Origin: Candidatus Thorarchaeota archaeon | Lineage (GTDB): Archaea; Asgardarchaeota; Thorarchaeia; Thorarchaeales; Thorarchaeaceae | Length of the DNA: 64,000 bases | Assembly: GCA_003345545.1 (NCBI GenBank) | Contig: PRDH01000081.1 | Span: 56,483-120,482, forward strand | Direction of reading: 5' to 3' | Part shown: one piece after another, positions 5,820-25,754 of the stretch | Layout: each line of letters opens with the position of its first letter | Numbering within the stretch: the stretch's first letter is position 1 | Program-made: the position numbers and the translations under genes | The notes under the pieces: generated by a model | The model's input: only the letters and a program-made list of their open reading frames with translations | Database searches by the model: none | Told to the model about the DNA's origin: nothing

Positions 5820-5926
5820 TGGTGGACCGGGCGAGATTTGAACTCGCGGCCTTCTGAAGTGTCGGCCTGTGGCTAACACCAGCAAGCTTGCGAATCAGAC
5901 GATCTACCGGTCTGATCTACCGGCCC
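5820..5926 (-). tRNA. tRNA-Ala(CGC) with 30-nt intron (5859-5888) at position 37/38; CCA encoded
   Basis: Reverse complement folds as GGGCCGG acceptor (G3:U70), TCTGA/TCAGA anticodon stem with TTCGCA, TTCAAAT T-loop, ACCA end; 77 nt after intron removal. Confidence 0.93.
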
Positions 5927-10227: not shown

Positions 10228-10300
10228 GGCTCAACAGTGTGCAGGTATAACATGGGTAAGCTATCTCTGCTAACCCCGTTAAGCCTGTACTTCATCAAGC
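10228..10300 (+). other. 5' strand of the 16S pre-rRNA processing stem (leader)
   Basis: GGCTCAACAGTG pairs with 12087-12098; GGGTAAG with CTTGCTC; TCTCTGC with GTGGAGA; CCCCGTT with GACGGGG; CCTGTACTTC with GAGGTACAGG (12007-12016); CAAGC with GCTTG. Confidence 0.8.
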
Positions 10301-11237
10301 GAATTAAGTTCTGTGTGTAAAAGTGTTGTACAAAGTGACTGAGTACTACTCCAGTCATTCCTTGCTAAGATGTACAATATTAGGACCAACTCTAGTTGAT
10401 CCTGCTAGAGGACACTGCTATCGGCTTGGGGATAAGACATGCAAGTGGAACGGGCTCGCATCCGAGTCCGTCGCGAACGGCTCAGTAGTGTCGCTAACCT
10501 ACCCTGTGGAGGTGGACAACGCCGGGAAACTGGCGTCAATCCATCATAGGAGCATCGTTCTGGAAATGATGTTGCTCTCAAAAGGATGTTCCAGGCATGT
10601 GGGACACTCCGCCGCAGGACGGGACGGCACCGGATCATACTTGTAAGTGGGGTAACTGCCCACTTAGGTTATGACCCGAACGGGCGATGTAAGTCGTGGC
10701 CCGGAGAAGGGCACTGAGACAAGGGCCCTAGCCCCACGGGGCGCAGCAGTTACGAGACCTCACCAATGCGCGAAAGCGCGAGTGGGCTAAGCCGAGTGAT
10801 GGGGGATAACTCCATCTGTGGCGGATCCGCAGGGTGGACCGCTAGAAAGGAGAGGGCAAGGCTGGTGCCAGCCGCCGCGGTAAAACCAGCTCTTCGAGTG
10901 GTGTCCACAATTATTGAGCTTAAAGCGTTCGTAGCCTGCTTGGTAGGTCCCTGCTTAAATCCGGTCGCTCAACGATTGGTCTGGTAGGGATACCACCTTG
11001 CTTGGGGACGGGAGACGGTGACGGTATTCCGTAGGTAAGGGTGAAATCTAATGATCTACGGAGGACCACCAGTGGCGAAGGCGGTCGTCGAGAACGTGCC
11101 CGACGGTGAGGAACGAAACCTAGGGGAGCAAATCGGATTAGATACCCGAGTAGTCCTAGGTGTAAACGATGTCCGTTAAGTGTTGCATTGGCCACGAGCC
11201 ACTGCAGTGCTGTAGCTAAAGCGATAAACGGACCGCT

Positions 11238-11301
<64 letters not shown>

Positions 11302-11746
11302 GCTTGCGGTTCAATTGGACTCAACGCCGGAAAACTTACCCGCCCAGACAGCCGAATGAGAGCCAGACTGATGATCTTGCTCGACGAGCTGAGAGCTGGT
11401 GCATGGCCATCGTAAATTCGTGCCGTGAGGTATCAGCTTAAGTGCTGCAACGAATGAGATCCTCGCCACCTAGTTGCCAGCCGGGAGTTTAGGCTCTGAC
11501 GGGGCACACTAGGGGGACCGCCAGCGAAAAGCTGGAGGAAGGTGGGGGCCACGGTAGGTCAGTATGCCGCGATATGGGCGGGGCCACACGCGTGCTACAA
11601 TGGCTGGGACAATACGTAACAACGCCGAAAGGTGAAGTCAATCGCGAAACCCAGTCGTAGTCGGGATCGCGGGTTGGAACTCACCCGCGTGAACCTGGAA
11701 TCCCTAGTATCCGCGTGTCACTATCGCGCGGAGAATACGTCCCTGC

Positions 11747-11776
11747 AGGGGACGTGAATCTCACGTACCCGGGGAA
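11747..11776 (+). other. 30-nt BHB intron in 16S (after ~E. coli 1386)
   Basis: Helix CCCT/GGGG, bulges GC^A and AA^T, internal hairpin; removal gives CCCTGCTTCTTGCACACACC. Confidence 0.85.
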
Positions 11777-11879
11777 TTCTTGCACACACCGCCCGTCGCT
11801 CCACGCGAGCTGTTCTTGGGTGAGGCGTCATCCACTGGGTGATTACGAATCTTGGGACGGCAAGTGGGGAGAAGTCGTA

Positions 11880-11909
11880 AAGTTGTTAGACTTCCTAGCG
11901 ACTCGATTA
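11880..11909 (+). other. 30-nt BHB intron in 16S (after ~E. coli 1499)
   Basis: Helix GTCG/CGAT, bulges TA^A and TA^A, 9-bp hairpin; removal restores AAGTCGTAACAAGG. Confidence 0.9.
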
Positions 11910-12003
11910 ACAAGGTATCCGTAGCGGAAGCTGCGGATGGATCACCTCCTAAGTTTTCACCATCTTCAAGATGGTGAAGATTAGCTTGCCTGTCTTCGGA
12001 CAG

Positions 12004-12115
12004 GTAGAGGTACAGGCCTTCGACGGGGAACGCGGTGCAATCGTAAGGTTGCCCCGACGCCAAAGTGGAGAACTTGCTCTTGCTGTCGCTGTTGAGCCAC
12101 CCTTTTCCTTTTTCA
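12004..12115 (+). repeat. 16S 3' trailer repeat copy 1 (resident; processing-stem 3' strand plus T-rich terminator)
   Basis: GTAGAGGTACAGGCCTTCGACGGGGAACGCGGTGCAATCGTAAGGTTGCCCCGACGCCAAAGTGGAGAACTTGCTCTTGCTGTCGCTGTTGAGCCACCCTTTTCCTTTTTCA. Confidence 0.92.
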
Positions 12116-12230
12116 TTCATTTACATATGCAAGTTGACTCTCTATGTGTCATCTTGGAGGAAGTCCTTTCTTGATTTTCTCCAAGAGATCTCGTACCTCG
12201 CCAAACATCGCATCATAATCGATGACTATG

Positions 12231-13442
12231 CTAGAGTATCTCCGGAGTCGATTTTGAATCAATACCTGTGCGAGTCGCGCGAATTCTTCGTCTTCTCCAA
12301 CGAAGACCAAGGATACCAATAGTGAGTGCAATTGCAATTCCAGCGGTTCCAATGACTATCAGTAGAAGGTCCTCTTGACCTGAGAGGAGAAGCATGTCAA
12401 GATTGCCTCCTGCAGAGGTTCTGAGAATACAGCCATCGTATCCTACTACCCATCCGTGCAACTCATCAACGAAACAGACAGCCATCCTGCGACTGCCTAT
12501 GTCGGTAGGAACTGATTGTTGATACCAGGTACTTCCACCATTCGGCGTGTGCATCACAGGGATCTCATCGCCTACGATCCATCCGTGCTGGTCATCAATG
12601 AATTGTATATCTGAACAATATGGAGATCTGAGCCGAAATGAAGGAAGTCTTCCGGGGACAGCCAGCTCCTCCCACGTATGGTCTTGCTCCATGTGGAGGA
12701 GGTAGCCATCACTGACACCCCATGCTTCGTCTTCGTTGGGAAACGATAGGCTCCAGCCTCCCTTATCAAAGACCTTCTCCCAGGTCTCCGCGCCATCATC
12801 GCTATGGTAGATACCATCATAGCCAATCGCCCATACTTCATGCTCGGTCAAGAAATGCATGTCCCGAGGATTATCGTCAAACGTCCAACCAGTCATATTC
12901 TGCCAGGTCTGCCCTCCATCAGTTGTTTTGAAAAGCATCTGCATCGTGGCAGTCCATCCATGGGTCTCATTGAGGAACTCCACCGTACTCATGGTCGACA
13001 GACGATTACTACCCGCAAGAGAGGTATGCCATGACGCTCCACTATCGTTTGTGAAGTAGAGACGACCGAGTCCAGTCACCCATACTGTTCGATCATTCAC
13101 TACCTCAATTTGTCTGAATATCTGCGAATCATCAGCGAGCTGGGTCTCCCAGGTGTCCCCACCGTCTTCTGTGTGAAGAATAATACCACCTCTAGTTATG
13201 TTAGGGTACAATATTCCCACGACCCATCCGTGAGAGGAATTGATGAACTCAACATCACGAAATGTAGCCTCTGGGTAGTCGCTCTCAAGGGATATCCACG
13301 TTGTGGCCTGAGTCTGTGCAGGTCCTATCGACGCTGCATCTGTAGAAGTTATAGGCAGACCTGTGTATGCAAATCCAAGTAGGATCAGCAGTAGTATAGC
13401 ACTGAGCCTGCGACCGGTTCTGGATGTTCTCAGGGGAATCAT
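12231..13442 (-). CDS. Secreted, membrane-anchored YCF48/BNR-repeat beta-propeller protein (cassette cargo)
   Basis: Repeated TxDGGxTW Asp-boxes, F...HGWVVG, signal peptide, C-terminal TM. The ORF-track N-terminus runs through the repeat, so start reset to 13442. Confidence 0.85.
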   Translation of the reverse strand: MIPLRTSRTGRRLSAILLLILLGFAYTGLPITSTDAASIGPAQTQATTWISLESDYPEATFRDVEFINSSHGWVVGILYPNITRGGIILHTEDGGDTWETQLADDSQIFRQIEVVNDRTVWVTGLGRLYFTNDSGASWHTSLAGSNRLSTMSTVEFLNETHGWTATMQMLFKTTDGGQTWQNMTGWTFDDNPRDMHFLTEHEVWAIGYDGIYHSDDGAETWEKVFDKGGWSLSFPNEDEAWGVSDGYLLHMEQDHTWEELAVPGRLPSFRLRSPYCSDIQFIDDQHGWIVGDEIPVMHTPNGGSTWYQQSVPTDIGSRRMAVCFVDELHGWVVGYDGCILRTSAGGNLDMLLLSGQEDLLLIVIGTAGIAIALTIGILGLRWRRRRIRATRTGIDSKSTPEIL

Positions 13443-13518
13443 GCTCAGCTTATTCCTTACAGAATTGGTCTTGAATGAGTTATCATATAGGTCTTTGTCC
13501 ACCTTAGGTGGATACGAA

Positions 13519-13629
13519 GTAGAGGTACAGGCCTTCGACGGGGAACGCGGTGCAATCGTCAGGTTGCCCGATGCCAAAGTGGGGAACTTGCTCGTGCTGT
13601 CGCTGTTGAGCCACCCTTTTCCTTTTTCA
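13519..13629 (+). repeat. 16S trailer repeat copy 2 (long type)
   Basis: Near-identical to copy 1. Confidence 0.92.
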
Positions 13630-13736
13630 CCCATCTATCAGACTCAGTGGACCATTTATCAATTGATTTAAGAATCAGTCTGACTCCAAGTTCCTTGACT
13701 TTGATTACGTGGTAATGATAGGGTGGCTAATGAAGA

Positions 13737-14192
13737 ATGACCAGTGACAGACTGGCAAAATGGATCATGGCTATTACAACTCTGTTTGCCCCCTTTGGCG
13801 TGTACGCTTTCTCAGTACGTAACTCTATCCTCACGGTATCAATGCACGCTGTGTTATGGGGTATCATGCCAGGAGAGTCTGGAAATACTGGGTCGACACT
13901 ATTTGATATGTACATCATTATAGGGAGGGGTTTATTTTATGGCATCTTTAACATCTGGTTTGGCATAGAGGTCATCAGATACTTCAATGACTACACCCGT
14001 AGACGAATGGCCATTCAATCGGGAATCATATCATTACTCTACCCCTTTGCAATGGTCATCATTTCATGGCCTTGGCTTCAACATTCAACAACATTTGAGT
14101 ATCTTGGACCAATTCCCATCCAATTTATCGTTGGTCTCTTGTTGATGAAGTACTTTGGAGAACAAAAACCTCTTGAACCTTGGAGCGATTAA
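13737..14192 (+). CDS. Hypothetical membrane protein (cassette cargo)
   Basis: 151-aa ORF with about 4 TM segments, immediately after repeat copy 2. Confidence 0.75.
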   Translation: MTSDRLAKWIMAITTLFAPFGVYAFSVRNSILTVSMHAVLWGIMPGESGNTGSTLFDMYIIIGRGLFYGIFNIWFGIEVIRYFNDYTRRRMAIQSGIISLLYPFAMVIISWPWLQHSTTFEYLGPIPIQFIVGLLLMKYFGEQKPLEPWSD

Positions 14193-14376
14193 AATAGTGG
14201 CATTTGCTTCTCTATCTACTACCTCGGTGGAAACCCTCTCTTGACACGTTTTAGCATGAATCGCATATTGGTTGAGAGTAGTTAATATTGACCGTTTCAG
14301 ACAACTACATAGAGAGTTGATTCACAATCCCATAGATGAAAGAGTTTAATTCATAACCTTCGGATGGTAGTACATA

Positions 14377-14613
14377 ATGATGAAAGTAAAATTCACTGCT
14401 GTTGTATGGGAAGAAGAGGGGACATACGTTTCCAAATGTCCCGAGATTGATGTATCATCTGCAGGGGACACCGTTGAAGAGGCTCTGGCTAACCTCACAG
14501 AGGCAATAGAGCTCTGGCTCGTCAATGCACGTGAGCTTGGAATCATGGATGAGTATCTTCCGATGATGACTGCCTCTGAGAAGTCCACACGTACGATCGA
14601 GATCAACGTCTGA
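14377..14613 (+). CDS. hicB: HicB-family antitoxin
   Basis: YVSKCPEIDVSSAGDTVEEALANLTEAIELWL. Confidence 0.9.
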   Translation: MMKVKFTAVVWEEEGTYVSKCPEIDVSSAGDTVEEALANLTEAIELWLVNARELGIMDEYLPMMTASEKSTRTIEINV

Positions 14614-14658
14614 GTTCTAGATTTGTATGGCCGTTATAGCTGGCACACAGTGATGTCA

Positions 14659-14892
14659 ATGAGTAAGTTACCTCAGATCAGTAGTAAGAAGCTCATCCGG
14701 AGGTTACTCAAGGCTGGTTTTCAATACGCTCCTGTGAAAGGAAAAGGTAGTCATACCGCTCTCGTCAGGTATGATGATAATCGACCATATCTCGTTATCA
14801 TTCCTCACAGAGATCCGATTCCAAAGGGAACTCTTCTCTCAATCATCAAACAGAGTGGACTATCAAAAGAGAAATTTCTAGGCTTGTTATGA
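14659..14892 (+). CDS. hicA: HicA-family toxin
   Basis: GF...KGSH, VIIPH...IPKGTLLSIIKQSGL. Confidence 0.9.
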   Translation: MSKLPQISSKKLIRRLLKAGFQYAPVKGKGSHTALVRYDDNRPYLVIIPHRDPIPKGTLLSIIKQSGLSKEKFLGLL

Positions 14893-14940
14893 AGATTCGA
14901 GTACTCCTTTTGAAGGACTGACTTGTTCATCCCAAATGAA

Positions 14941-15047
14941 TACAGGTCTTCGACGGCGGGGAACGCGGTGCAATCGTCAGGTTGCCCGATGCCAAAGTGG
15001 GGAACTTGCTCGTGCTGTTCGCTGTTGAGCCACCCTTTCGTTTTTCA
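14941..15047 (+). repeat. 16S trailer repeat copy 3 (long type)
   Basis: TACAGGTCTTCGACGG...GCTGTTGAGCCACCCTTTCGTTTTTCA. Confidence 0.9.
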
Positions 15048-15091
15048 CTAGTTACTTCAATCAGTGCTGATTGAGGTTGAATGCAGGAGTT

Positions 15092-15298
15092 TCAAGTCTC
15101 TCTGTAACTGAGTTTCAATATTGCTAGAGCCACTGCAGATAGACCTAATGCAAGCACGATCATTTGAGCTCCAGCTATCACATCTGCGTTGAAGCCGCCC
15201 GATAGACTACCCAAGAGTAATGTTGCTGTTAATAATGCTAACACTACTAGAATATACACCAAAACTGATAGAACTCTCTGATGATTAATTGGAAACAC
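15092..15298 (-). CDS. Small two-TM membrane protein (cassette cargo)
   Basis: 68 aa, two hydrophobic helices; only plausible gene between copies 3 and 4. Confidence 0.6.
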   Translation of the reverse strand: MFPINHQRVLSVLVYILVVLALLTATLLLGSLSGGFNADVIAGAQMIVLALGLSAVALAILKLSYRET

Positions 15299-15404
15299 CT
15301 CCCAGTATTACATAACTAGAGATTCACTCAGAAGAACCTTCCTCTTCTATCCTAGTATTCCATGTTATCAGCTTTTCCGAATGCATATCTCTCTGATGGA
15401 CCTC

Positions 15405-15480
15405 GGGTACGGACCAACGGGGTCGGACTGTCGGGGAACTTGCCCCTGCTGTCGCTGTTGAGCCACCCCTTCATTCTTCA
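15405..15480 (+). repeat. 16S trailer repeat copy 4 (short type)
   Basis: GGGGAACTTGCCCCTGCTGTCGCTGTTGAGCCACCCCTTCATTCTTCA; lacks the GCAATC/GGTTGC hairpin. Confidence 0.85.
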
Positions 15481-15512
15481 GCTGGCTGTTTGAGTGCAGA
15501 TTGATGGAGGAG

Positions 15513-15541
15513 TTTATATATCTACATCTACACATGTAGAT
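15513..15541 (+). promoter_or_regulatory. TATA box plus inverted-repeat operator upstream of vapBC
   Basis: TTTATATA followed by ATCTACA-CA-TGTAGAT. Confidence 0.6.
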
Positions 15542-15552
15542 TGTGAAGTAGT

Positions 15553-15801
15553 ATGACATCAAAGACAATCTCTGTGACAGAAGATGTCTACAACCTTCTC
15601 CGGAAGATGCGATTACCTGGTGAGAGTTTCGGTGATACCATCAACCGACTATGTAAGTCCAAGACATCACTCTCTCTCCGTATATGGGCTGAGTCCTCCG
15701 ATGGCTGGAGCGATTTGACCCCTGAAGAAGCTACACGACTGGAAAACACCCTTGAAACAATCCGCATCACACTTCATCCCGAAGAGGTCGATCTAGATTG
15801 A
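15553..15801 (+). CDS. vapB: VapB-type antitoxin (archaeal)
   Basis: KTISVTEDVYNLL...GESFGDTINRL; overlaps PIN gene. Confidence 0.88.
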   Translation: MTSKTISVTEDVYNLLRKMRLPGESFGDTINRLCKSKTSLSLRIWAESSDGWSDLTPEEATRLENTLETIRITLHPEEVDLD

Positions 15802-16205
15802 TCTTCTTGGACACCACCCTTCTTGTAGACATCCTGAGAAAGGATAGGGTGGCAATCTCATGGCTGAATGACCTTGAAGAGCAAGCTCTGTATACATCAG
15901 AAATCAATGTCTTTGAACTATATACCGGCCTCTTCCGCGTTTCCCAAGGTTCTACTACAAAAAGAAAGAAGAGGGCTCTCGAGCTCGAGCAACTTCTCTC
16001 CAGGATGGAAGTACTTACGTTTGACAGAAATGCTGCCATTGAATCCGCGAAGATACTCTCCCTCCTGATGAGCAGAGGAGAACCCATTGGTACGCGTGAC
16101 ATCATGATTGCTGGTGTGGCACTATCCACGGGGATAACACAGCTAGTGACACGCAATATCCAAGAGTTCCAAAGGATTCCAGGTATACGTGTTGACTCCT
16201 ACTAG
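15798..16205 (+). CDS. vapC: VapC PIN-domain toxin
   Basis: IFLDTTLLVD, ELYTG, DIMIAGVAL, LVTRN..EF. Confidence 0.92.
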   Translation: MIFLDTTLLVDILRKDRVAISWLNDLEEQALYTSEINVFELYTGLFRVSQGSTTKRKKRALELEQLLSRMEVLTFDRNAAIESAKILSLLMSRGEPIGTRDIMIAGVALSTGITQLVTRNIQEFQRIPGIRVDSY

Positions 16206-16683
16206 ATTGACTTCTTGCATGAATCAATAATCACGAAGCATAGAATGGTTCAATAACCTTGAAGCATATGAAGGCTGAAACCGTGTTAATCTCATTGCTG
16301 TTCTGTGGCAGTTCCCTGCAATCTCAGACGCCCCTCATTTCGAGATACTCTCTAGTCTTCGGTTGGTTTTCTTCATAGTTGTAATGACATACATCTGGTC
16401 TTCGCACTATCAGTCAATGAGTACTTACAAGGAAAATCAACTGCATTCAGGGTCTCCATACTCTGGGCTGTCAGTCAGACGCCTATTCATGTACTTAGCC
16501 TTCCCCGTTGTTTTACAGGGTCATATCCTGGATCGATCTTCTACACCGGTCCTACATTCATAATTCTGATTGCCGGGTTGCTCTTGATGAAGCTCGTTCG
16601 GCAACGCAGCAATAGGCTGTGGGTCGAGTCTACTCAGTAGGACACTCTCGAGACGATGAATCATGCATATGCTTTCAAGGCAA

Positions 16684-16771
16684 AATGCAGTGCAATCTTC
16701 AGGTTGCCCCGACGCCAAGGTGGGGAACTTGCCCCTGCTGTTCGCTGTTGAGCCACCCTTTTCTTTTTACA
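16684..16771 (+). repeat. 16S trailer repeat copy 5 (long type, 5' truncated)
   Basis: GTGCAATCTTCAGGTTGCCCCGACGCC...GCTGTTGAGCCACCCTTTTC. Confidence 0.9.
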
Positions 16772-16927
16772 ATATCTTTCAGAATGAGTTGAGTCTATTT
16801 TCTATCATGAGATCATTGTGATATTGAGATGTCCGTTAGAATTCTCTTCACATCATCTATTGTCAACAATCTGAAATGGACCATTATTGATGGTGTTTTT
16901 TTGAGCATCTCTATTGATTCAATCGAA

Positions 16928-17344
16928 TTAGATATTGGTCGGGTCAAGTCTTGTTAGACCTTCTATTCTATCATAGATACGATCTGTTGAAGCAATAGTA
17001 TGATCCGGATTGTCATTACTGAGTGAAACTGCTGCATAAATCGCATCAAAGATGGAACCCAATCTATAATTCTCCAAGAGATATAGCGCTGCTAGTTGAT
17101 GATCAATTGTAGAAGGGACAACTGAGATATTTGGGAACGTAACAACGTGACTTATGATATCACGAACTGAGGACACACCAGTGAGGTTTCTCAAGACATA
17201 GTAAAGTTCTATGGAGAAGATACTTGGAACAAGGACACTCCCGAACTTACCTTCTTCAATACTTGAGAAAAGTCGAGTCGCATGCGTTTTTAGATTGTCA
17301 TTCTTCTTATAGAACGCCAAGATCATATCGTTCTCGATTAGCAT
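16928..17344 (-). CDS. PIN-domain (VapC-like) toxin
   Basis: MLIENDMILA, IELYYV, IFDAIYAA, IASTDRIYD. Confidence 0.85.
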   Translation of the reverse strand: MLIENDMILAFYKKNDNLKTHATRLFSSIEEGKFGSVLVPSIFSIELYYVLRNLTGVSSVRDIISHVVTFPNISVVPSTIDHQLAALYLLENYRLGSIFDAIYAAVSLSNDNPDHTIASTDRIYDRIEGLTRLDPTNI

Positions 17345-17574
17345 TCCGTTTCTTTCCGCCTCCATCGTTTGGATACATCCTTCGCAATCTCTGCATCTGC
17401 TTTGGCAAGGAGGTCCGCAATTGGTCCCTCAATATCCAATTCTGGTTTATCAGAGGGGATAGGAAAGAGGATATGATAAGATCCAATGGTAAGGAGAAGA
17501 AAAGTATCTCCTTCGAGTCCTGCCTTTCTTGGGATTCTGATGCGTCTTTGATCATCCATTCGAACTCTTACCAT
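17338..17574 (-). CDS. AbrB/MazE-like antitoxin
   Basis: VRMDDQRRIRIPRK; overlaps PIN gene; GAGGTG Shine-Dalgarno (SD). Confidence 0.8.
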   Translation of the reverse strand: MVRVRMDDQRRIRIPRKAGLEGDTFLLLTIGSYHILFPIPSDKPELDIEGPIADLLAKADAEIAKDVSKRWRRKETEC

Positions 17575-17620
17575 CAAGATGAACACCTCGTATGATTGTA
17601 AGACAAATATGATTTAAAGA

Positions 17621-17652
17621 TATGGATGAAATTCACACTTTATGGATGAAAT
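17621..17652. promoter_or_regulatory. 12-bp direct repeat (TATGGATGAAAT x2), possible operator of the AbrB-PIN module
   Basis: Copies at 17621 and 17641, next to a TTTAAA box. Confidence 0.45.
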
Positions 17653-17720
17653 ATGTATATATTGACCTATTTCTATCAGGCTACAATATTCGGCGACATC
17701 TCATTCGATTGATTCAGGGA

Positions 17721-17786
17721 GTATCCGACGCGGAAGCTGCGGATGGAAGAAGTTGAGATTTCCTCATCTTCCATCACTCACCTCCT
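17721..17786 (+). pseudogene. Orphan 16S rRNA 3'-end fragment (h45 plus anti-SD) with its own 30-nt BHB intron (17748-17777)
   Basis: GTATCCGACGCGGAAGCTGCGGATGGA[intron]TCACCTCCT versus resident GTATCCGTAGCGGAAGCTGCGGATGGATCACCTCCT. Confidence 0.9.
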
Positions 17787-17951
17787 ATTTTTTCTACTTC
17801 ATAGAGGTAGAAGCAGCTTGGCTCGCAGTCCTTCGGGGCTGTGGGAGAAGTACGGGCCTTCGACAGCGGGGAACGCGGTGCAATCGTCAGGTTGCCCCGA
17901 CGCCAAAGTGGGGAACTTGCTCTTGCTGCGGCTGTTGAGCCACCCTTTTCG
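17787..17951 (+). repeat. 16S trailer repeat copy 6 (complete trailer with both upstream hairpins)
   Basis: Hairpin, AGCTTG, UUCG hairpin, then repeat; same layout as 11951-12115. Confidence 0.9.
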
Positions 17952-18050
17952 TTGTCTATCGTCAATTTCGGATGAGTGTAAGTCAGGTTTATCTTCTCTC
18001 TCGTTTGCTTTCAGGTTTAAATATGTGACTTGACCAAGTGGGAATAATCA

Positions 18051-18818
18051 GTGAAAGTCAAATGTTTTGATTGTGATGAAGTGATTGAAGCGGACAGCCT
18101 TGAAATGCTAGCAGATGTTTTTGTGACACATGGTATAAGGATCCATTCTTGGGAGTATCCCGAAGAGGCGATAAGAAATTACGCCTGCAATTACGCAGAA
18201 GCAGTAGAGCGACTCACAGGTGATACAGCAAGAAAAGAGGAAATTGGCGAAATCACGATACATCCAGTCACAAAGGACTCCATAGATGATTGGTTACATT
18301 TTTTCGATCATGATGGTTTCGCCGATAATCCTGGGTGGGCATCCTGCTACTGCCTCCAACCACATTTACCTACGACAGATGAGAACCTAGATCGTCCATG
18401 GCGTGAATCACGATCAATCATGGTCAAACGCCTCTTAAAGGGAGAAACATTTGGGTACTTAGCGTATGTTGATAACAAACCAGTGGGATGGGTAAACGCT
18501 TCTTTGTGCAGTGAGTATAAGCTTCTTCAACAAAGCGATCCGAATGGTCCTGAGTCAGCATCAATAATTGGTATCTCGTGTTTCGTGGTTGCTCCGCCCT
18601 ATAGAAGACATGGAATTGCGTCAGCCTTACTCGATCGTGTTATTGCGGACGCTGCCTCCCGTGGTGCATTGTGGATTGAGGGCTACCCTCGCAATAAGCC
18701 CGAGAGTAAAGATGACGCGCACTTTCGAGGACCTAGTAGTATGTACACTAATCGTGGATTCCAACCAGTTGTTGTTCGAGGACGTGATACTGTAATGCGT
18801 TTGCAGGTACACTATTGA
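18051..18818 (+). CDS. GNAT acetyltransferase with N-terminal CxxC domain (cassette cargo)
   Basis: CFVVAPPYRRHGIASALL; IEGYP. Confidence 0.85.
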   Translation: MKVKCFDCDEVIEADSLEMLADVFVTHGIRIHSWEYPEEAIRNYACNYAEAVERLTGDTARKEEIGEITIHPVTKDSIDDWLHFFDHDGFADNPGWASCYCLQPHLPTTDENLDRPWRESRSIMVKRLLKGETFGYLAYVDNKPVGWVNASLCSEYKLLQQSDPNGPESASIIGISCFVVAPPYRRHGIASALLDRVIADAASRGALWIEGYPRNKPESKDDAHFRGPSSMYTNRGFQPVVVRGRDTVMRLQVHY

Positions 18819-18862
18819 CTTCCCTTCAATGAAATTATAAGTAATCATCAACATTATGATTT

Positions 18863-19060
18863 ATGATAGATATGGGCGAGACCACTACGATTCCACTGAC
18901 TAAAGAGACACGTGATCTCCTGAAGAAACATGGTCAGAAGGGAGAGACCTACGACGAACTAATTCGTCGTCTTCTTCAGATAGCCGAACAAGTGGAGTTT
19001 GCCAGAAGACAGAAACGAATTCTCGAGGAAGAGGAGTTCGTTCCACTTGACCAAGTATAG
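18863..19060 (+). CDS. RHH-type antitoxin
   Basis: TTIPLTKETRDLL...GETYDELIRRL; overlaps relE. Confidence 0.8.
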   Translation: MIDMGETTTIPLTKETRDLLKKHGQKGETYDELIRRLLQIAEQVEFARRQKRILEEEEFVPLDQV

Positions 19061-19328
19061 GGTCTTGCTGTCCAGAACAGCAGTTGCGCAGTTAGACTTA
19101 CTGAACCCCAAACAGAAGAATCGGGTCAAATCGAGTCTAGAACAGTTGGAAGACGACCCGTTTCGAAGACGTTCTGGCGCGGACATCAAGAGACCTCTCA
19201 CTCATGGCGAACTACCTCTCTACCGATTACGCATAGGTGACCATCGCGCCATTTACTTCGTGATAGAACATGAAGTCAGAGCCACTGAAATAATCCATAG
19301 AAGTAGAGGATACAAATGGTTGGAGTAG
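19047..19328 (+). CDS. relE: RelE/ParE-family toxin
   Basis: YRVLLSRTA...LYRLRIGDHRAIY...IIHRSRGY; likely TTG start at 19047. Confidence 0.88.
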   Translation: MTKYRVLLSRTAVAQLDLLNPKQKNRVKSSLEQLEDDPFRRRSGADIKRPLTHGELPLYRLRIGDHRAIYFVIEHEVRATEIIHRSRGYKWLE

Positions 19329-19348
19329 CTCACCTCAGATAGAGTTTC

Positions 19349-19453
19349 GAAGTAGAGGGGGCGGCGAACGCGGTGCAATCGTAAGGTTGCCTCGACGCCA
19401 AAGTGGAGAACTTGCTCTTGCTGTTCGCTGTTGAGCCACCCTTTCATTTTTCA
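19349..19453 (+). repeat. 16S trailer repeat copy 7 (long type)
   Basis: GAAGTAGAG...GAACGCGGTGCAATCGTAAGGTTGCC...GCTGTTGAGCCACCCTTTCATTTTTCA. Confidence 0.9.
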
Positions 19454-19516
19454 TTAGAGCATTACTCAAATTCCTCTATCATAGTAGTGATATTTGGAAA
19501 TGTGAAGGATTGAATT

Positions 19517-19678
19517 ATGAAGAAGAACGCAACTCTCTTTGAATGTGAGGAATGCCATCTGCTGTATGATGAAGAAAGCTGGGCAAAGAAGTGTGAGCAG
19601 TGGTGTATCGAGCACAAATCATGCAATCTAGAAATAGCTCGGCACGCAACGAAACAATCCAAGCTATCACTCTCATAG
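19517..19678 (+). CDS. Small Cys-rich zinc-finger-like protein (53 aa, not in ORF track; cassette cargo)
   Basis: MKKNATLFECEECHLLYDEESWAKKCEQWCIEHKSCNLEIARHA... Confidence 0.75.
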   Translation: MKKNATLFECEECHLLYDEESWAKKCEQWCIEHKSCNLEIARHATKQSKLSLS

Positions 19679-19707
19679 TATGCTCACCAAGCGTTTCATA
19701 CGGACAC

Positions 19708-19782
19708 GAAGTAGTGGCGGAGGGGACGGGTGATTTGGGAACTTTCCTTTAGTTTGTCGCTGTTGAGCCACTCTTTTTTCAT
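19708..19782 (+). repeat. 16S trailer repeat copy 8 (short, degenerate)
   Basis: GAAGTAG...GGGAACTTT...GTCGCTGTTGAGCCACTCTTTTTTCA. Confidence 0.75.
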
Positions 19783-19903
19783 TCATCTATTCTTATGACT
19801 GGACTCTCGTTTTTGTTCGAATAAATTCCCGACTGTCACAACTCTAATATGATATTGTGATCTACATCTACTTTGAGTGGGCTAACTAGGATGGAGGTCA
19901 AAG

Positions 19904-20653
19904 ATGGCTGGCAATAGTCTTGGACTCAGTCCTCTTCAGAAGAGCATGATTATAGGCTATGCCTTCTTTGTTGTTGCGTACAGTCTAAGCATCATGACCG
20001 CACTCTTGATTGGAGGTATCGGAGGACTTGTGCCTAGGGGCTCTCTCTGGTTCCGGGTGACCTACGACCTGCTCAGGCAGAGCACCAATCTTGCAATGCC
20101 GGTGTTCATCTCCATTCTCCCCCTGTTAGTCATGCTCAACCTGAACTATATATGGTTCAAACACCTATCCACGTCCGAGCCTCTCTCTGCAAGGAAAGTG
20201 TCTATTCAGACTGTCCTTGGCGTCTTCGTTGCTCTTCCTCTCTTGATACTTGCCGTGAGCATGATGGTCGTTTCTGCAGAGTCGATTATCGGGTGGTATG
20301 AACAATGGCCTGTCTATGGTGTTATTTTCTTCGTCGTATCTCTGCTGTACATGCTTGTAATCTCCGTCATCTCAGCAAGTGAGAAGAAGCGGTTCCTAGT
20401 TCAAAGTCTTACGAGTGCTCGCCTGTGGGTGCCATATGTCCTCGTCTCCGTCTTGCTGGCTTTCCCAGTTGCTGGAGTAATTCTCCCCTTCTTCAAGGGG
20501 TATTGGATGTCAATTCCTCTTGGCCGAGCGTTAGACACTTTTTTGAGAGCATTCTGGGTATCCTTGGTCCTGCCGGTTCTTCCGTACATATTTGCTCGCC
20601 TAAGCGTGAAACCTGATTCTCCTAGCGGATTCTCAGATGAAGGCTCGAAGTAG
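19904..20653 (+). CDS. Hypothetical multi-pass membrane protein (cassette cargo)
   Basis: About 6 TM segments; stop codon is the TAG of the repeat's GAAGTAG 5' motif. Confidence 0.75.
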   Translation: MAGNSLGLSPLQKSMIIGYAFFVVAYSLSIMTALLIGGIGGLVPRGSLWFRVTYDLLRQSTNLAMPVFISILPLLVMLNLNYIWFKHLSTSEPLSARKVSIQTVLGVFVALPLLILAVSMMVVSAESIIGWYEQWPVYGVIFFVVSLLYMLVISVISASEKKRFLVQSLTSARLWVPYVLVSVLLAFPVAGVILPFFKGYWMSIPLGRALDTFLRAFWVSLVLPVLPYIFARLSVKPDSPSGFSDEGSK

Positions 20654-20751
20654 GGACGGCGGGGAACGCGGTGTAATCGTCAGGTTGCCCCGATGCCAAA
20701 GTGGGGAACTTGCTCTTGCTGTTCGCTATTGAGCCACCCTCTCATTCTTCA
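20646..20751 (+). repeat. 16S trailer repeat copy 9 (long type)
   Basis: CGAAGTAG...GGGGAACGCGGTGTAATCGTCAGGTTGCCCCG...GAGCCACCCTCTCATTCTTCA. Confidence 0.9.
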
Positions 20752-20838
20752 CCCGTCTAATCACCCCAGTTGATTCTCCATTTGCTATCTGGGGATTCCA
20801 TCTAATTCATCACTTGGGTGGAGTTTCAGAATCTCCTG

Positions 20839-21981
20839 TTAGGCCCTACCACCCTCCACGCTATCACCCGGCGTTCTTACCCTTTTCAACCACCAGCATA
20901 GGATAACAATGGCTGCTAATCCACCAACGAGTAAGAGCGGTTCCAAGCCTATGCTAGGTCCACCACTCTCTCTGATTTCCAGAATGACGAACCCGTTATC
21001 TTGGTCTGTCATATAGACTAGATTACCGACCACTTCAACACGGTTAGGCTTACCGCCATCGAAGTAGCGGGTAACTTCAGTAAGCTGAGTTGGATTTTGA
21101 ATATCTAGTAGCAGTAGTCCTAATTCAAGATCACAGAGAAATGCAAGATTGCGCTCAGTGTCAATGTGAACAGAAAAAGCATCCAAACTCTCATTGAATT
21201 CAGATACAACTCTGATGTTTGATAGATCACTTATATTCAGTACCTTGAGGCTCTTATCCCAATAACTTAGAAAAGCTAAATCTCCAACGATCTCAAGATC
21301 ACCCATGTCAGTATCGCTAGTCGACTGTCCTATGTACTGTGCTAGTAGTATTGGATTAGTGTAGTTACCAACGTCAAAAACAGTGAACCCTTTGTAGCTT
21401 GTCGTCACAAATGCCAGATTATCCAAAACCTCAATATCGGTTGCACCTCCAATTGTGATGAAACTGCTCAGTAGTGTAGGTGTGGTAGGATCCGTCACAT
21501 TGACAATCGTCAGTTTCCCACCACTGCCTGGGAATCCATTGGCAACGAAGGCTACATCTCCTATCACTTCTACATCCCACGCATAATCACCAGTGAACTG
21601 ACTCAGAACAGCGGGGCTAGATATGTTCTCGAAATCGATAATTCTGAGTCCGCCATGACCATCCCCTATGAACACTAGATTATCACGCATGACAAGTTGG
21701 TGTGCATATCCACTTGAGGAAGAAGATACGTTTGCTATCTCAATCGGATTAGTCGGGTCACTAATATCAAAGACCTTTACTCCAGAGTAACCACATGTAA
21801 CATAGGCCATGTCATTGTCGGTATCGACCCACACGTCATAGGCATCACCAGTTTCAATCTGTCCAGCTTTTGTTAGCACAATCCCACTCGTACTCGCTCC
21901 AGACGCGAAACAGATTGCTCCTGACTCTAGAATGAGGACTAACGCTAGAATGCAAACGACGGTAATGAGTCTGCTCTTCAT
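20839..21981 (-). CDS. LVIVD-repeat beta-propeller surface protein (cassette cargo)
   Basis: Repeated GLRIID/VFDISDPTNP units, signal peptide, C-terminal TM. Confidence 0.85.
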   Translation of the reverse strand: MKSRLITVVCILALVLILESGAICFASGASTSGIVLTKAGQIETGDAYDVWVDTDNDMAYVTCGYSGVKVFDISDPTNPIEIANVSSSSSGYAHQLVMRDNLVFIGDGHGGLRIIDFENISSPAVLSQFTGDYAWDVEVIGDVAFVANGFPGSGGKLTIVNVTDPTTPTLLSSFITIGGATDIEVLDNLAFVTTSYKGFTVFDVGNYTNPILLAQYIGQSTSDTDMGDLEIVGDLAFLSYWDKSLKVLNISDLSNIRVVSEFNESLDAFSVHIDTERNLAFLCDLELGLLLLDIQNPTQLTEVTRYFDGGKPNRVEVVGNLVYMTDQDNGFVILEIRESGGPSIGLEPLLLVGGLAAIVILCWWLKRVRTPGDSVEGGRA

Positions 21982-22255
21982 TCTATGTTTCCTCCATCAC
22001 TGATTTCCATCAACATTTCGGCTCCTAATGCCCTAATTCTCAGATTGCATGAAGACAAAATCATGCACCAAGAGTCGCGATGTTTCATTGAATTAAGAAT
22101 GGCGTTCAGCGCAGGCGATGTGTACATACTCCACAATGTTCGAGCATCGCAAGAAGCCATACCGCAAGAGTGTCTTCTTTCATGGCTGACATCGTGCATT
22201 AGAAATGTAATAGGAGCAGATTCCGCCGTTCCTAGGAACTGGATCTCTTGGCAGA

Positions 22256-22336
22256 GAGAAGTATAGATTGGTGGAGTCTGGTAATCAGGGAACTTGCCCC
22301 TGCTGTTCGCTGTTGAGCCACCCTTTTCATTTTTCA
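22256..22336 (+). repeat. 16S trailer repeat copy 10 (short type)
   Basis: GAGAAGTA...TCAGGGAACTTGCCCCTGCTGTTCGCTGTTGAGCCACCCTTTTCATTTTTCA. Confidence 0.85.
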
Positions 22337-22476
22337 CAGTGTTATCTTAATGAGTAGAGCCTATCTTCCTTATCGGAATGTCTTCGTTCGAAACATCTTT
22401 CACAGTTGTACCACACTCTATGAATCTGTGTAGCTTTATAACTGTCAGAACCCACGCTGATTTGAGGTACGCATCA

Positions 22477-22836
22477 ATGGTTAAAGAGATAGAGATTTCC
22501 GTGGAGGCTTACAGTCTTTTAGAAAAGGCGAGATTGCAGGGTTGGCAATAGCTGCAAGACACTTGAACAGAGTTGGACAGGTGCTTATATAGTTCAGTCC
22601 GAACTAGTCCTGTGAGGATGACCCGACATGAACTCTATCCTCACGGAGTTGTGCCCAGTGCCGTCTTCTGGGCGGACAGCACTCTGGTGTCCAAGTTTGT
22701 CCAACTAACAATGAACGGTGAAGATATCAGTGATACGATCCTCCGCCTAATAGAGTTGAGAGAACGAACTGAATTCGTCAAGCGTCAGAAGCAAATTGCT
22801 GAGGCTGAGGACTTCCTTCCACTTAATCAATCCTGA
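22477..22836 (+). pseudogene. Antitoxin gene interrupted by a 177-bp element
   Basis: Removing 22542-22718 gives a 60-aa ORF MVKEIEISVEAYSLLEKARLQG-EDISDTILRLIELRERTEFVKRQKQIAEAEDFLPLNQS, similar to 18863-19060. Confidence 0.85.
22542..22718 (+). mobile_element. Non-autonomous structured insertion element, copy 1 (177 bp)
   Basis: Interrupts an antitoxin gene; homologous to 44542-44717; lies 3' of CAGGG. Confidence 0.85.
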
Positions 22837-22896
22837 GATTGAGTCAAGTCTGAAACCAGACAGATGTCTTCATATACTCTGTCATACATAGTATAC

Positions 22897-23211
22897 ATGA
22901 TAGAGATGGGCGATGTTCTTTCAGTCAGAATGGATGAAGAATTGGAGAAGCGTCTTGCATTCCTGATGGAGAAGAAGAAGATAGTGGATAAATCATCATA
23001 TGTAAGGCAGCTCATTGATAGGTCTCTATCAGATGATCTTCTCGATTATCTGTCTGAGGAAGTTGCTGCTAGACATATCAGCATCTGGAAGGCTGCTTCT
23101 ATTGCCGGTATCCCACTCAGGGCCATGATGAGTGAGCTGGCAAAACGTAACATATCGATGTATGATGAACAAGCACTCACTGAGGACTTGATTTTTGCAG
23201 AGGGCAGATGA
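22897..23211 (+). CDS. UPF0175-like antitoxin (RHH plus HTH)
   Basis: VLSVRMDEEL..., ISIWKAASIAGIPLRAMMSEL. Confidence 0.8.
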   Translation: MIEMGDVLSVRMDEELEKRLAFLMEKKKIVDKSSYVRQLIDRSLSDDLLDYLSEEVAARHISIWKAASIAGIPLRAMMSELAKRNISMYDEQALTEDLIFAEGR

Positions 23212-23716
23212 ATTGATTGCAGTCGTCAACTCATCACCTCTCATATACTTGGGGAAACTTGGTCTTCTTAGCTTGCTACAACAATTGTTTGACCATGTGC
23301 TCACTGTTCCTTCTGTGAAGGAAGAGGTTCTTGATTCTTCTGCTTCTGAATATGCCACACTGCAGAGTGCATTCTCAGACTGGTTGATAGTGTCTGATGT
23401 TCCAAAAAGCGTTCTCTCAACAAGACTGAGCGATATGGGCCTCCATCAAGGCGAGGTGGACACTCTTGTACTTGCTTATCATACGAAAGAGCAACAATCC
23501 GATTCGGTCATTATTATTGATGACCTAGCAGCTAGAGACGTAGCTAGATCGCTAGGGCTGAGAGTGGCCGGAACTATCGGTATTATTCTACGAGCAACAA
23601 AGAATGGGTTACTTACAAAAAATGAATCACGCGCCAGAATTCGTTTTCTTGTTGAAGAAACATCATTCCGGATGTCAGCTGCATTGTACTCCAGAGTCAT
23701 CTCTGGTCTAGAATGA
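23195..23716 (+). CDS. DUF3368-like PIN-domain protein (toxin)
   Basis: VVNSSPLIYL, LHQGE, IIDDLAAR, GTIGIILRA. Confidence 0.85.
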   Translation: MQRADELIAVVNSSPLIYLGKLGLLSLLQQLFDHVLTVPSVKEEVLDSSASEYATLQSAFSDWLIVSDVPKSVLSTRLSDMGLHQGEVDTLVLAYHTKEQQSDSVIIIDDLAARDVARSLGLRVAGTIGIILRATKNGLLTKNESRARIRFLVEETSFRMSAALYSRVISGLE

Positions 23717-23743
23717 GTGAATCTTAGAGTTACTGAGAATGAC

Positions 23744-23850
23744 AGGTATGAGCCCTCGACGGCGAACGCAGTGCAACAGTCAGGTTGCCCCGACGTCAGA
23801 GTGGGGAACTTGCCCTTGCGTTCGTTGTTGAGCCACCCTCTTCATTTTAC
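23744..23850 (+). repeat. 16S trailer repeat copy 11 (long type, diverged)
   Basis: CTCGACGGCGAACGCAGTGCAACAGTCAGGTTGCCCCGACG...GTTGAGCCACCCTCTTCATTTT. Confidence 0.85.
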
Positions 23851-23924
23851 TTAGCGATTCCGCTACTAGGAACCACATCTTCATAGGCAGAGGGCACCAT
23901 AAACACCAATGAGATGATAGGTGA

Positions 23925-24593
23925 ATGAGTGATATTGAGCGTCAAACACTGTGTTTTCAGTACTGTGGTGAAGTGAATACTGAAAGAACATTGTTAGCTG
24001 CAAGAGAGCGCTGCAAGACGCTTGATTTGAGCAAAGTGGTAGTTGCTTCCGAAACTGGAAGAAGCGCCTTGAAAGCTGTTGAGGTCTTCAAGAATTCGGA
24101 TATCATCTTGATTGTTGTGACTCACTATCCTGCCTCAACATGGGGCCCAAAAGGAAGGATACCGATAGGTCTTGGTCGTCACGAATACACTGATACTCGA
24201 GAAGCTTTGGTTAACCATGGTGTCAAAATAGTCCAGAGCACAAGACCATTCGCACCACCGTCAAGATCTTTAGACTGGAACTATCCTACGCCTGAGGCAA
24301 TCATCGATCGAACACTCGATGTATTCGGTTCCGGGACCAAAATTGCTATTGAAGCGGCAATCATTGCTGTGGACTGCGGAGAAGTCGAAGAGGGTGAAGA
24401 TGTCATTTCATGTGCAGGCACATTCAAGGGACTCGATACAGCTCTATGCGTTCGGCCAACATATACGATGAATTTCTTTAAGTCATTCGAGATTCGAGAA
24501 ATAATCGCCAGACCCGTGTGCAGAGTTCAGACACTGCCAGAGCATGAACACAAGAACTGGAAAGGTAACCTCGACCAATATCTTACTCAATGA
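23925..24593 (+). CDS. Pyruvate-kinase C-terminal-like alpha/beta domain protein
   Basis: GEVNTERTL, VVASETGRSAL, GTFKGLDTA, EIREII. Confidence 0.8.
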   Translation: MSDIERQTLCFQYCGEVNTERTLLAARERCKTLDLSKVVVASETGRSALKAVEVFKNSDIILIVVTHYPASTWGPKGRIPIGLGRHEYTDTREALVNHGVKIVQSTRPFAPPSRSLDWNYPTPEAIIDRTLDVFGSGTKIAIEAAIIAVDCGEVEEGEDVISCAGTFKGLDTALCVRPTYTMNFFKSFEIREIIARPVCRVQTLPEHEHKNWKGNLDQYLTQ

Positions 24594-24641
24594 CAACAAA
24601 GTTGAATCAAGAAAGTAGATTATATCCATTCCACCACTCTT

Positions 24642-25661
24642 TTGAGAGGCCTTCTTCCGCCAAACCCTGAAATGCAAACCATTGCTGTGATTTGGCTCAT
24701 GGTCTTCTTAGGAGGATACATCGCAATCTACCTTCTAGCTGATCTCATCATCGACGCTCTAGAGAATCTCAGTCAATCATTTGCTATCTCTCCCATAGTC
24801 TTAGGACTACTAGTCCTTGGAATTGATGTAGAAGAGAGCATTGTTTCCTTAGTTGCAGCTGTAGATGGTCTCCCCTATCTTTCACTTGGCCAACTCATAG
24901 GAAACACAGTGATAGCAATTGCGATTGCATTCGGCGTACCTGCTCTCTTTCTCAGAATTGAGGTCGACCAGCTTCCAAGATTCTACTATGCTGAGCTGGT
25001 GATTGCAGGTATAGTAGTGTTGGTATCAATGGTCCTGACAAGCTACCTGATCGTATTCGGACTTCTGGCCATTGCTCTCTTCGTCATTCATTTACGCCAC
25101 ACTTTTCACATACAAAGGGAATTCAGGTCGGCCGTCAGAAGTCCGGAACGGTTTGAACTGACTCCCAATTTGGAACGTGAAAAATGCACAGGCGAAAAGA
25201 GTGAAGGTCGTGCGCGGTTTGTAATCAAATTGCTGCTGGCTCTACTTGCTGTGTTCGTTAGCGGTGAGGTCTTGGTTGTCAGTGCTGAGGAGCTTGTCGT
25301 CTTAACCGGACTAAGTGAAACTTTCTTTGGATTGGTCATAATGGCGGCTGTGACCAATGTTGAGGAGTTCTGGCTCATTGTCAAGGCGGTACAAAAAGGT
25401 CAGACTGCATTGGGTGTGAGTGCGCAGGTTGGTAAGATAATCTGGAACACCACGTTAATCTTCGGGCTCTGCAGCCTGTTTCTGTTTCAGTTCACATTTG
25501 AGATGATAATGCTGACGAGCTCGATTATCTTTGTCTTTGCACTCGTCGTATTGGTAGTTAATCTCACTCAGAATCGATCATCGAGAGCGACCGGTATTGG
25601 CTATCTATTGATTCTCCTGATTTTCCTAGCCATCAATTCCCTTGGTTTTCTGATAGGCTGA
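24642..25661 (+). CDS. Na+/Ca2+ (CaCA) exchanger family protein
   Basis: Two alpha-repeats (GLLVLG..VEES; GLVIMAAVTNVEE); about 10 TM segments. Confidence 0.8.
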   Translation: MRGLLPPNPEMQTIAVIWLMVFLGGYIAIYLLADLIIDALENLSQSFAISPIVLGLLVLGIDVEESIVSLVAAVDGLPYLSLGQLIGNTVIAIAIAFGVPALFLRIEVDQLPRFYYAELVIAGIVVLVSMVLTSYLIVFGLLAIALFVIHLRHTFHIQREFRSAVRSPERFELTPNLEREKCTGEKSEGRARFVIKLLLALLAVFVSGEVLVVSAEELVVLTGLSETFFGLVIMAAVTNVEEFWLIVKAVQKGQTALGVSAQVGKIIWNTTLIFGLCSLFLFQFTFEMIMLTSSIIFVFALVVLVVNLTQNRSSRATGIGYLLILLIFLAINSLGFLIG

Positions 25662-25675
25662 ATCTGGTGATGAAA

Positions 25676-25754
25676 GAAGTAGAGGCTGACGGAGTCAGGC
25701 GTTCAGGGAACTCTCCAGTTCCTCGAACTGGTGAGCCATCCTTCTCGTTTTCAC
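25676..25754 (+). repeat. 16S trailer repeat copy 12 (short, degenerate)
   Basis: GAAGTAGAGG...TCAGGGAACT...TGAGCCATCCTTCTCGTTTTCA. Confidence 0.65.

Follow-up and report, generated by a model that had tools for sequence, protein, structure and literature searches.

Two 30-nt inserts in the 16S rRNA gene of a Thorarchaeota archaeon are probably protein-spliced BHB introns of a Thorarchaeia-wide family

The locus studied here raises the question of why the 16S rRNA gene of a Thorarchaeota archaeon is interrupted twice by short blocks of sequence, and what becomes of those blocks in the 16S rRNA. The window referred to below is the whole stretch of DNA that was analysed, 64,000 nt in length. 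An Rfam search of the window identified a single, full-length archaeal SSU rRNA (RF01959, 1246 bits) of 1562 nt at 10389-11950 on the forward strand, and no 23S rRNA within the window. The gene consists of 1502 nt of exon sequence and two 30-nt introns, and the 16S genes of intron-less congeners are 1502 nt long. It is the sole copy, with one match in the 2.69-Mb assembly of 82 contigs. The host genome is a MAG that is 93% complete with 5.4% contamination, so a second, intron-less copy may exist.

Two blocks were left unplaced when the gene was aligned to the Rfam model. The first block is within GUCCCUGC...UUCUUGCACACACC (GUCCC-UGC...UUCUUGCACACACC) and the second block is within AAGUCGUA...ACAAGGUA. 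Read from the sequence, these blocks are 11747-11776 and 11880-11909, each of 30 nt. Intron-less congeners read GTCCCTGC joined directly to TTCTTGCAC at the site of insert 1 and GAAGTCGTA joined directly to ACAAGGTA at the site of insert 2. Deletion of both blocks yields the exact sequence of the intron-less congeners. The earlier note on this DNA had placed two 30-nt inserts at these positions and had claimed that cleavage after the second bulge base restores the conserved sequence exactly; both claims agree with the Rfam model and with the congeners. The borders of insert 1 are unique. The border of insert 2 can be shifted by one base each way, as A and A adjoin at both ends, with the product unchanged, and insert 2 was placed at 11880-11909 because the BHB rule selects that register.

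Both inserts are located inside invariant columns of the Rfam model and not in variable regions. We take insert 1 to lie at approximately 1386/1387 and insert 2 at approximately 1499/1500 in E. coli numbering, from motif alignment. The sites are near the decoding centre, in universally conserved, functionally critical stretches, namely a strand of neck helix 28 and the 1492-1506 linker beside A1492/A1493.

Both inserts exhibit the same layout in their MFE folds, where four exon nucleotides are paired with four intron nucleotides, followed by a 3-nt bulge and a 9-bp hairpin with a 5-nt loop. Intron 1 (11747-11776, forward strand) consists of A, the stem strand 11748-11756, the loop AAUCU (11757-11761), the stem strand 11762-11770, GGGG (11771-11774), and AA (11775-11776). 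The exon strand of its central helix (H2a) is CCCU at 11741-11744 (E. coli ~1381-1384), which pairs with 11771-11774 in the MFE fold and is 100% paired among 11 distinct sequences. The 5' bulge is GCA (11745-11747, forward strand), a 3-nt bulge in the fold with the predicted cut after 11746, and this border restores the congener sequence. The 3' bulge is AAU (11775-11777, forward strand), with the predicted cut after 11776; it is unpaired in the fold without an outer helix, and its AA is invariant among the 11 sequences.

Intron 2 (11880-11909, forward strand) consists of A, the stem strand 11881-11889, the loop ACUUC (11890-11894), the stem strand 11895-11903, CGAU (11904-11907), and UA (11908-11909). 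The exon strand of its central helix (H2a) is GUCG at 11874-11877 (E. coli ~1494-1497), which pairs with 11904-11907 and is 95.3% paired among 16 sequences. The 5' bulge in the fold is UAA (11878-11880, forward strand), with the predicted cut after 11879 and a border that restores AAGTCGTAACAAGG. The 3' bulge is UAA (11908-11910, forward strand), with the predicted cut after 11909 and a 3' flank that is unpaired in the fold without an outer helix.

The 4-bp central helix of a BHB intron is hence present at both sites (CCCU with GGGG and GUCG with CGAU), and it was seen together with the hairpin in the very register that gives back the exon sequence. Both inserts also have the form of short-hairpin introns (less than about 50 nt, with a predictable hairpin and the BHB kept), as each has 30 nt, a 9-bp stem, and a 5-nt loop. 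The strict hBHBh' motif, in which both bulges are closed by helices, was not found in either insert. The 5' bulge is closed and the 3' cut site is without an outer exon helix. The outer helix was looked for in the folds and by eye between 11733-11740 and 11778-11785 and between 11866-11873 and 11911-11918. The 3' flanks are unpaired in both MFE folds, and no exon-exon outer helix was found, therefore the motifs are assigned to the relaxed HBh' form. The outer exon helix had been described beforehand as relaxed, which the folds bear out. The claim of two 3-nt bulges in each insert stands for the geometry, the borders, and the closed 5' bulge; the second 3-nt bulge is not closed by a helix.

Other kinds of intron were also considered. 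A self-splicing (group I/II) or homing-endonuclease intron was rejected, as no Rfam intron family was found above threshold in the window. No endonuclease ORF is possible because the inserts have only 30 nt, in agreement with the earlier claim that neither insert encodes a homing endonuclease.

A register-exact motif of 37 nt (4/4 pairs in H2 and at least 8/9 pairs in H3) was then counted. The motif matches at 284 of the 5.4 million positions in the genome, a rate of about 5e-5 per position, as compared to 238-277 matches (about 250) in shuffled sequences. The expectation is about 0.07 matches per 1.5-kb gene, and the matches in the 16S gene are exactly the two inserts, with no other match in 16S and none in 23S. 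Since the genome count is near the shuffled counts, the motif alone is unfit for finding further introns. The motif is non-specific genome-wide, therefore the case for the two inserts rests on register, comparison, and covariation.

The distribution of the inserts was surveyed in 87 Thorarchaeia species genomes, which do not form independent samples, and each count covers only those genomes in which the site was assembled. The intron at the site of intron 2 (site C, ~1499) was identified in 19 species and the intron-less junction in 23 species, i.e. 19/42, and the site-C intron is found in 8 of the 17 genera. The intron at the site of intron 1 (site B) was identified in 7 of the 30 Thorarchaeia species with that site assembled, and also in eight metagenome contigs where it is always exactly 30 nt. 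The site-C pattern matched 16 archaeal records (11 of them labelled Thorarchaeota) and three bacterial records among GTDB species representatives. The inserts of the 16 archaeal matches are 30 nt except for one of 29 nt. The three bacterial matches (L033, L035, and L049) are unrelated sequence and were rejected. The introns are 30 nt long in 11/11 cases at site B, 19/21 at site C, and 4/4 at a further site, A. A metagenome 16S gene with exons 98.7% identical to those of the window carries an identical intron 1 and has no intron 2, so the gain or loss of these introns is recent. Transfer of the 3' domain was considered as the source of the introns and rejected, as exon identity to other genera is not raised in the 3' segment.

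Covariation across species supports both hairpins. At site C, 95.7% of cells are paired among 16 distinct sequences, seven of nine stem pairs are compensatory, and 0/500 shuffles are as good. At site B, 94.4% of cells are paired among 11 distinct sequences, five of nine stem pairs are compensatory, and again 0/500 shuffles are as good. Site A exhibits 92.3% pairing with five of nine stem pairs compensatory. Controls with the register slid exhibit only 21-56% pairing (22-56% at site C). The 4-bp exon-intron helix is invariant at site B and about 95% paired at site C.

The same module is present at no fewer than seven 16S sites across Thorarchaeia, i.e. at least 7, with a fixed layout of 1 + 9 + 5 + 9 + 4 + 2 = 30 nt and a loop that is usually A(C/U)UUC. 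The further sites are ~1338, after GAACCTGGA, and ~1531, between GGATGGA and TCACCTCCT (30-33 nt); in relatives the 30-nt module also occurs at ~908, ~1344, and ~1374. One relative (L039) has five such introns in one 16S gene. The 4-nt segment of the intron matches the local exon at each site, as in CCUG with CAGG, CCCU with GGGG, GUCG with CGRN, and GAUG with CAUC. As part of the whole explanation given here, the window introns very probably belong to one Thorarchaeia-wide family whose members are gained and lost between close relatives.

These comparisons bear on a rival reading, in which the inserts stay in the mature rRNA and form small expansion hairpins, as 16S insertions do in some uncultured lineages. 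Such hairpins may in principle protrude from the ribosome. However, an expansion of that kind would be expected in a variable region and without pairing to conserved flanks, whereas the inserts break universally conserved, critical stretches and at every site the 3' end of the intron can pair with the exon. The exon bases with which it must pair have other partners in the mature fold. The 4-nt complementarity, which is tailored to each site, is required by a BHB but would be superfluous in a retained hairpin. The sequence of the inserts drifts, yet their length and the register of the cut sites are kept, and close relatives have no inserts. Retention is thus considered very unlikely, and splicing is the preferred reading.

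The enzymes that splicing would require were found in the genome. Two EndA paralogues are encoded, one of 188 aa (G000 C12) with both Pfam domains and Tyr/His/Lys, and one of 212 aa (G000 C16) without the His. The 188-aa protein is closest to the (alpha-beta)2 EndA of Aeropyrum pernix (3P1Z_B, 1.5e-41). This catalytic EndA aligns to 3P1Z_B through the N-terminal loop region, and its alignment to the alpha4 enzyme of M. jannaschii starts only downstream of that region. An RtcB ligase is also encoded. From these matches, the genome is predicted to encode a two-subunit splicing endonuclease of crenarchaeal type, able to cut relaxed motifs, and a ligase. This agrees with published work in which the (alpha-beta)2 EndA of Asgard archaea, Thorarchaeota among them, carries the L1 loop that confers relaxed-BHB cleavage, and in which (alpha-beta)2 and epsilon2 enzymes accept the relaxed HBh' form as a substrate (PMC5829648). 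Since no closed bulge surrounds the 3' cut site, cleavage would need an enzyme of broad specificity such as the one predicted in Thorarchaeota. The leader strand of the pre-rRNA processing stem (10228-10293, forward strand) pairs with the trailer at 12007-12098 in a cofold with 72 intermolecular pairs and -148 kcal/mol. According to this model, the pre-16S transcript would already be a substrate of EndA type through its leader-trailer stem. A metagenome scan for the lineage-specific site-C junction, spliced or unspliced, gave 0 matches.

The proposed mechanism is as follows. In the pre-16S transcript, the last six bases of the intron and the next exon base would loop back to the exon, where four of the intron bases would pair with an exon tetranucleotide that ends two nucleotides ahead of the 5' splice site. 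This would give a 3-nt bulge with the 5' cut site, the 9-bp hairpin, and the second cut site 4 bp off on the opposite strand. The (alpha-beta)2 endonuclease, whose catalytic subunit has the crenarchaeal-type extra loop, would cut each bulge behind its second base, and the exons would then be joined by RtcB. The products would be a normal 16S rRNA of 1502 nt and 30-nt intron circles.

Excision could also leave the exons unjoined, so that the 16S rRNA would be fragmented. Fragmented rRNAs occur in other organisms, and the endonuclease alone would yield unjoined exons. However, the RtcB ligase is encoded, the 3' fragments of about 40 and 140 nt would have little pairing to hold them, and known archaeal rRNA introns are ligated (PMC4496867, PMC7714728); we regard this outcome as extremely improbable. 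We put the probability at about 0.85 that both inserts are archaeal protein-spliced BHB introns of the smallest hairpin class that are removed by the tRNA-splicing enzymes, with cutting and ligation as the steps that we infer. The basis of this reading is the borders, the geometry, the covariation, the patchy distribution, and the presence of the enzymes.

Larger introns are present at one of the sites listed above. Some relatives have an intron of 740-900 nt at ~908 (L006:461-1360 in G014, and L046 in G089), and the intron of G014 encodes a LAGLIDADG protein of 279 aa (PF14528, 6.8e-14). Other relatives have a mini-intron of 30 or 41 nt at that site. Archaeal rRNA introns are active in the genus, because a congener 16S gene holds a classical LAGLIDADG intron at ~908.

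No insert of about 30 nt was found in the 23S gene of this genome when it was aligned with three congeners, and the sole large indel is in a variable helix. In this lineage the 23S gene, too, has orphan tails, with additional copies of its 3' end in G001 (C17:31-201 and C32:9323-9457), and a large intron, an insert of about 780 nt at position ~2578 in G010 (C21:20571-21353) and G005 (C43:389-1181).

Aragorn identified 30 tRNA genes with introns allowed, of which 20 are interrupted and six have introns of 28-31 nt. These tRNA introns were considered as members of the same family and rejected, since the hairpins are not clearly related and the Aragorn borders are imprecise. Many tRNAs probably carry non-canonical introns that are missed by Aragorn. 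Within the window, Aragorn without the intron option reported no tRNA, and a tRNA-Ala(CGC) gene at 5823-5926 on the reverse strand has a 30-nt intron at the canonical position with a layout like that of the rRNA introns and one mismatch in the central helix.

A repeat array adjoins the 3' end of the 16S gene. About 13 direct copies of a repeat of ~100 nt that ends in GTTGAGCCACCC were observed at 12008-25754 with a spacing of 0.3-1.9 kb. The repeats separate small cassettes that by eye carry toxin-antitoxin-like and acetyltransferase-like genes. The array repeat is the 16S trailer, which forms the 3' strand of the stem for pre-16S processing, opposite the leader at 10228-10293. An integron was considered for the array and rejected; the core GTTGAGC resembles the R' box of attC, but no matching R'' was seen and the repeat is a strand of the processing stem. 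The array also contains an orphan 16S 3' end at 17721-17790 on the forward strand, 5.8 kb downstream of the 16S gene, which runs from helix 45 to the anti-SD and then the trailer. This orphan tail has an intron at 17748-17777 with the same 30-nt layout at the ~1531 site, which the resident 16S gene does not have. The same ~1531 insert is present in the working 16S end of four relatives (G015, G001, G003, and G014) and in a contig-edge 16S tail of G010. Another contig-edge 16S 3' end (G054 C61:13257-13361, L082) has a divergent helix 44/45 (GGGTTAAGTCGTAACAAGGTATCTGTAGGGGAACC) and is probably from another binned archaeon.

The earlier note had proposed that intron clustering beside the array may block or mark integration targets. 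Six of the seven intron sites are in the last 200 nt of the gene, adjoining the array, and the gene's 3' end takes part in recombination, because the orphan 16S tail sits in the array (17721-17790). However, the trailer repeat is also present behind intron-less 16S genes (L004 and L005), and five intron-bearing ones (L038, L039, L042, L045, and L048) have no copy within several kb. Introns at sites C and D occur in all four combinations, and one site, ~908, is far from the 3' end. Both window introns are upstream of the start of the orphan homology (GTATCCG, 11915), and no integrase-type target was seen. The correlation of array and introns across genomes that the note had called for exhibits no association in the small sample compared. 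The proposal is thus not upheld, and a role of the introns in integration is highly improbable.

A class-wide search outside 16S with the intron-free site-C 14-mer and the site-B unit identified loci that bear on why the introns exist. Five relatives have a TnpB-like protein of 580-626 aa followed by segments prefixed with GGTCGG (L081:1715-3800, L085:1192-3045, L084, L086, and L083 in G063, G097, G001, G067, and G023). The protein has a Cas12f1-like TNB domain and the RuvC-like motifs GIDLG and NADKNAAINI, and two of the proteins are 57% identical. The segments start about 50-250 nt past the gene, and 10-27 nt of each are identical to intron-free 16S. A total of 14 of the 16 prefixed segments extend across one of the intron sites A/F, B, C, or D, and the other two begin 3 nt after site C. 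One match, G097 C9:22988, was considered as a second 16S copy and rejected, as it is one 27-nt segment of the TnpB-like locus.

Nuclease avoidance or homing is suggested because the TnpB-like genes of these relatives precede segments that are identical to intron-free 16S sites. The introns may tentatively be regarded as the immunity or homing partner of an RNA-guided TnpB/Cas12f-like nuclease, which would add a reason for their existence and would not replace splicing. A 30-nt intron would break the target, so that intron-bearing genes would be spared while intron-free alleles would be cut and perhaps converted. In favour of this possibility, the guide-like segments match uninterrupted 16S sites, with 14/16 spanning intron sites, and in three genomes the locus is about 7 kb downstream of the 16S gene on the same contig. 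All three genomes that have both an exact site-B segment and an assembled 16S gene (G001, G067, and G097) carry the B intron, as compared to 7/30 overall, and G063, whose B segment is mismatched, has no B intron. On the other hand, G097 has a 13-nt antisense site-C segment yet no C intron, no consistent TAM was seen, and the genomes are few and related to one another.

A guide locus was also looked for in the assembly of the genome studied here, where there is no junction-spanning match of at least 13 nt, no GGTCGG unit, and no cluster of 16S-like segments. Its two TnpB-like homologues (45% and 40% identity) adjoin tRNA genes. They are located at C22:8443-10116 (L079:355-2028) and at C16:24095-25744 (L080:1180-2829, reverse strand) of the genome (G000), with a tail that reads ...ACACAGAAGT...TTCACTCA... 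before the tRNA gene. Three repeats of GGTCAGTGGAAGGC plus variable sequence were observed 3' of the C22 homologue. Nuclease avoidance or homing is not taken to explain this window, and as the reason why the mini-introns exist we consider it possible but doubtful. If true, it would explain the spread of gene-less 30-nt introns and their clustering in the 16S 3' domain, and a TnpB with several guides would resemble a step between TnpB and CRISPR-Cas12. If the link in the relatives holds, it would offer a route for ORF-less introns to persist and spread.

The inserts have a practical consequence for surveys of this lineage. Intron 2 splits the site of primer 1492R between AAGTCGTA and ACAAGGTA, as the earlier note had pointed out, and therefore only eight contiguous bases are left for the 3' end of 1492R on genomic DNA. 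The 1492R site is split in about 45% (19/42) of the Thorarchaeia species for which it was assembled, and these species should therefore be under-counted in PCR surveys of full-length 16S. The inserts lower rRNA model scores, and they may add to the broken assembly of 16S in MAGs.

Jay and Inskeep (2015, PMC4496867) described short (<50 nt) hairpin BHB introns in the 16S genes of Thermoproteales, Desulfurococcales, and Aigarchaeota, with 13 loci between positions 374 and 1391. The introns in this work are similar to these in being ORF-less hairpins of less than 50 nt that keep the BHB and interrupt conserved parts of 16S, including 'universal' primer sites. Both are also patchy among relatives and coexist with LAGLIDADG introns at nearby or identical loci (~908 in this work). 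However, the host in this work belongs to Asgard/Thorarchaeia and not to TACK, the window sites of ~1386/87 and ~1499/1500 are outside the 13 described loci, and one fixed 30-nt layout with a shared loop occurs at no fewer than seven sites, where a single gene can hold as many as five introns. No description of 16S mini-introns in Thorarchaeota or Asgard archaea was found among the papers searched. Asgard archaea are the closest prokaryotic relatives of eukaryotes. With these findings, the known range of protein-spliced rRNA introns would reach beyond thermophilic TACK archaea and include Asgard archaea, with a uniform 30-nt module at many sites of an essential gene.

The canonical archaeal tRNA intron at position 37/38 reportedly has the hBHBh' motif (Marck and Grosjean 2003). 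The rRNA introns share its topology in the pairing of four exon bases with intron positions -6 to -3, in the two 3-nt bulges, and in the predicted cut after the second bulge base, and the tRNA-Ala(CGC) gene of the window has a 30-nt intron of similar layout. They differ in that there is no exon-exon outer helix equivalent to the anticodon stem, so that only the relaxed HBh' form is present, and in that the host RNA is rRNA.

TnpB assists the homing of IS200/IS605 elements. As with those elements and with homing-endonuclease rRNA introns, a nuclease directed at the uninterrupted site would favour the interrupted allele. Unlike in those systems, the nuclease is encoded outside the intron, the introns are not transposons, and the locus is absent from this genome.

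The tRNA genes of Thermoproteales share intron families between sites, described as 'intron transposition' (Fujishima et al. 2010, as relayed in 10.64898/2026.10.13.758758). To the extent of that second-hand account, the introns in this work are alike in that related introns occupy different positions under BHB constraint, and they differ in that introns at different sites have layout, length, and loop in common but mostly unrelated stems. A recent census reported almost no such shared families among Asgard tRNA introns (10.64898/2026.10.13.758758). Compared with all these systems, the introns of the window represent a type of element that is already known, but their lineage and their sites are new.
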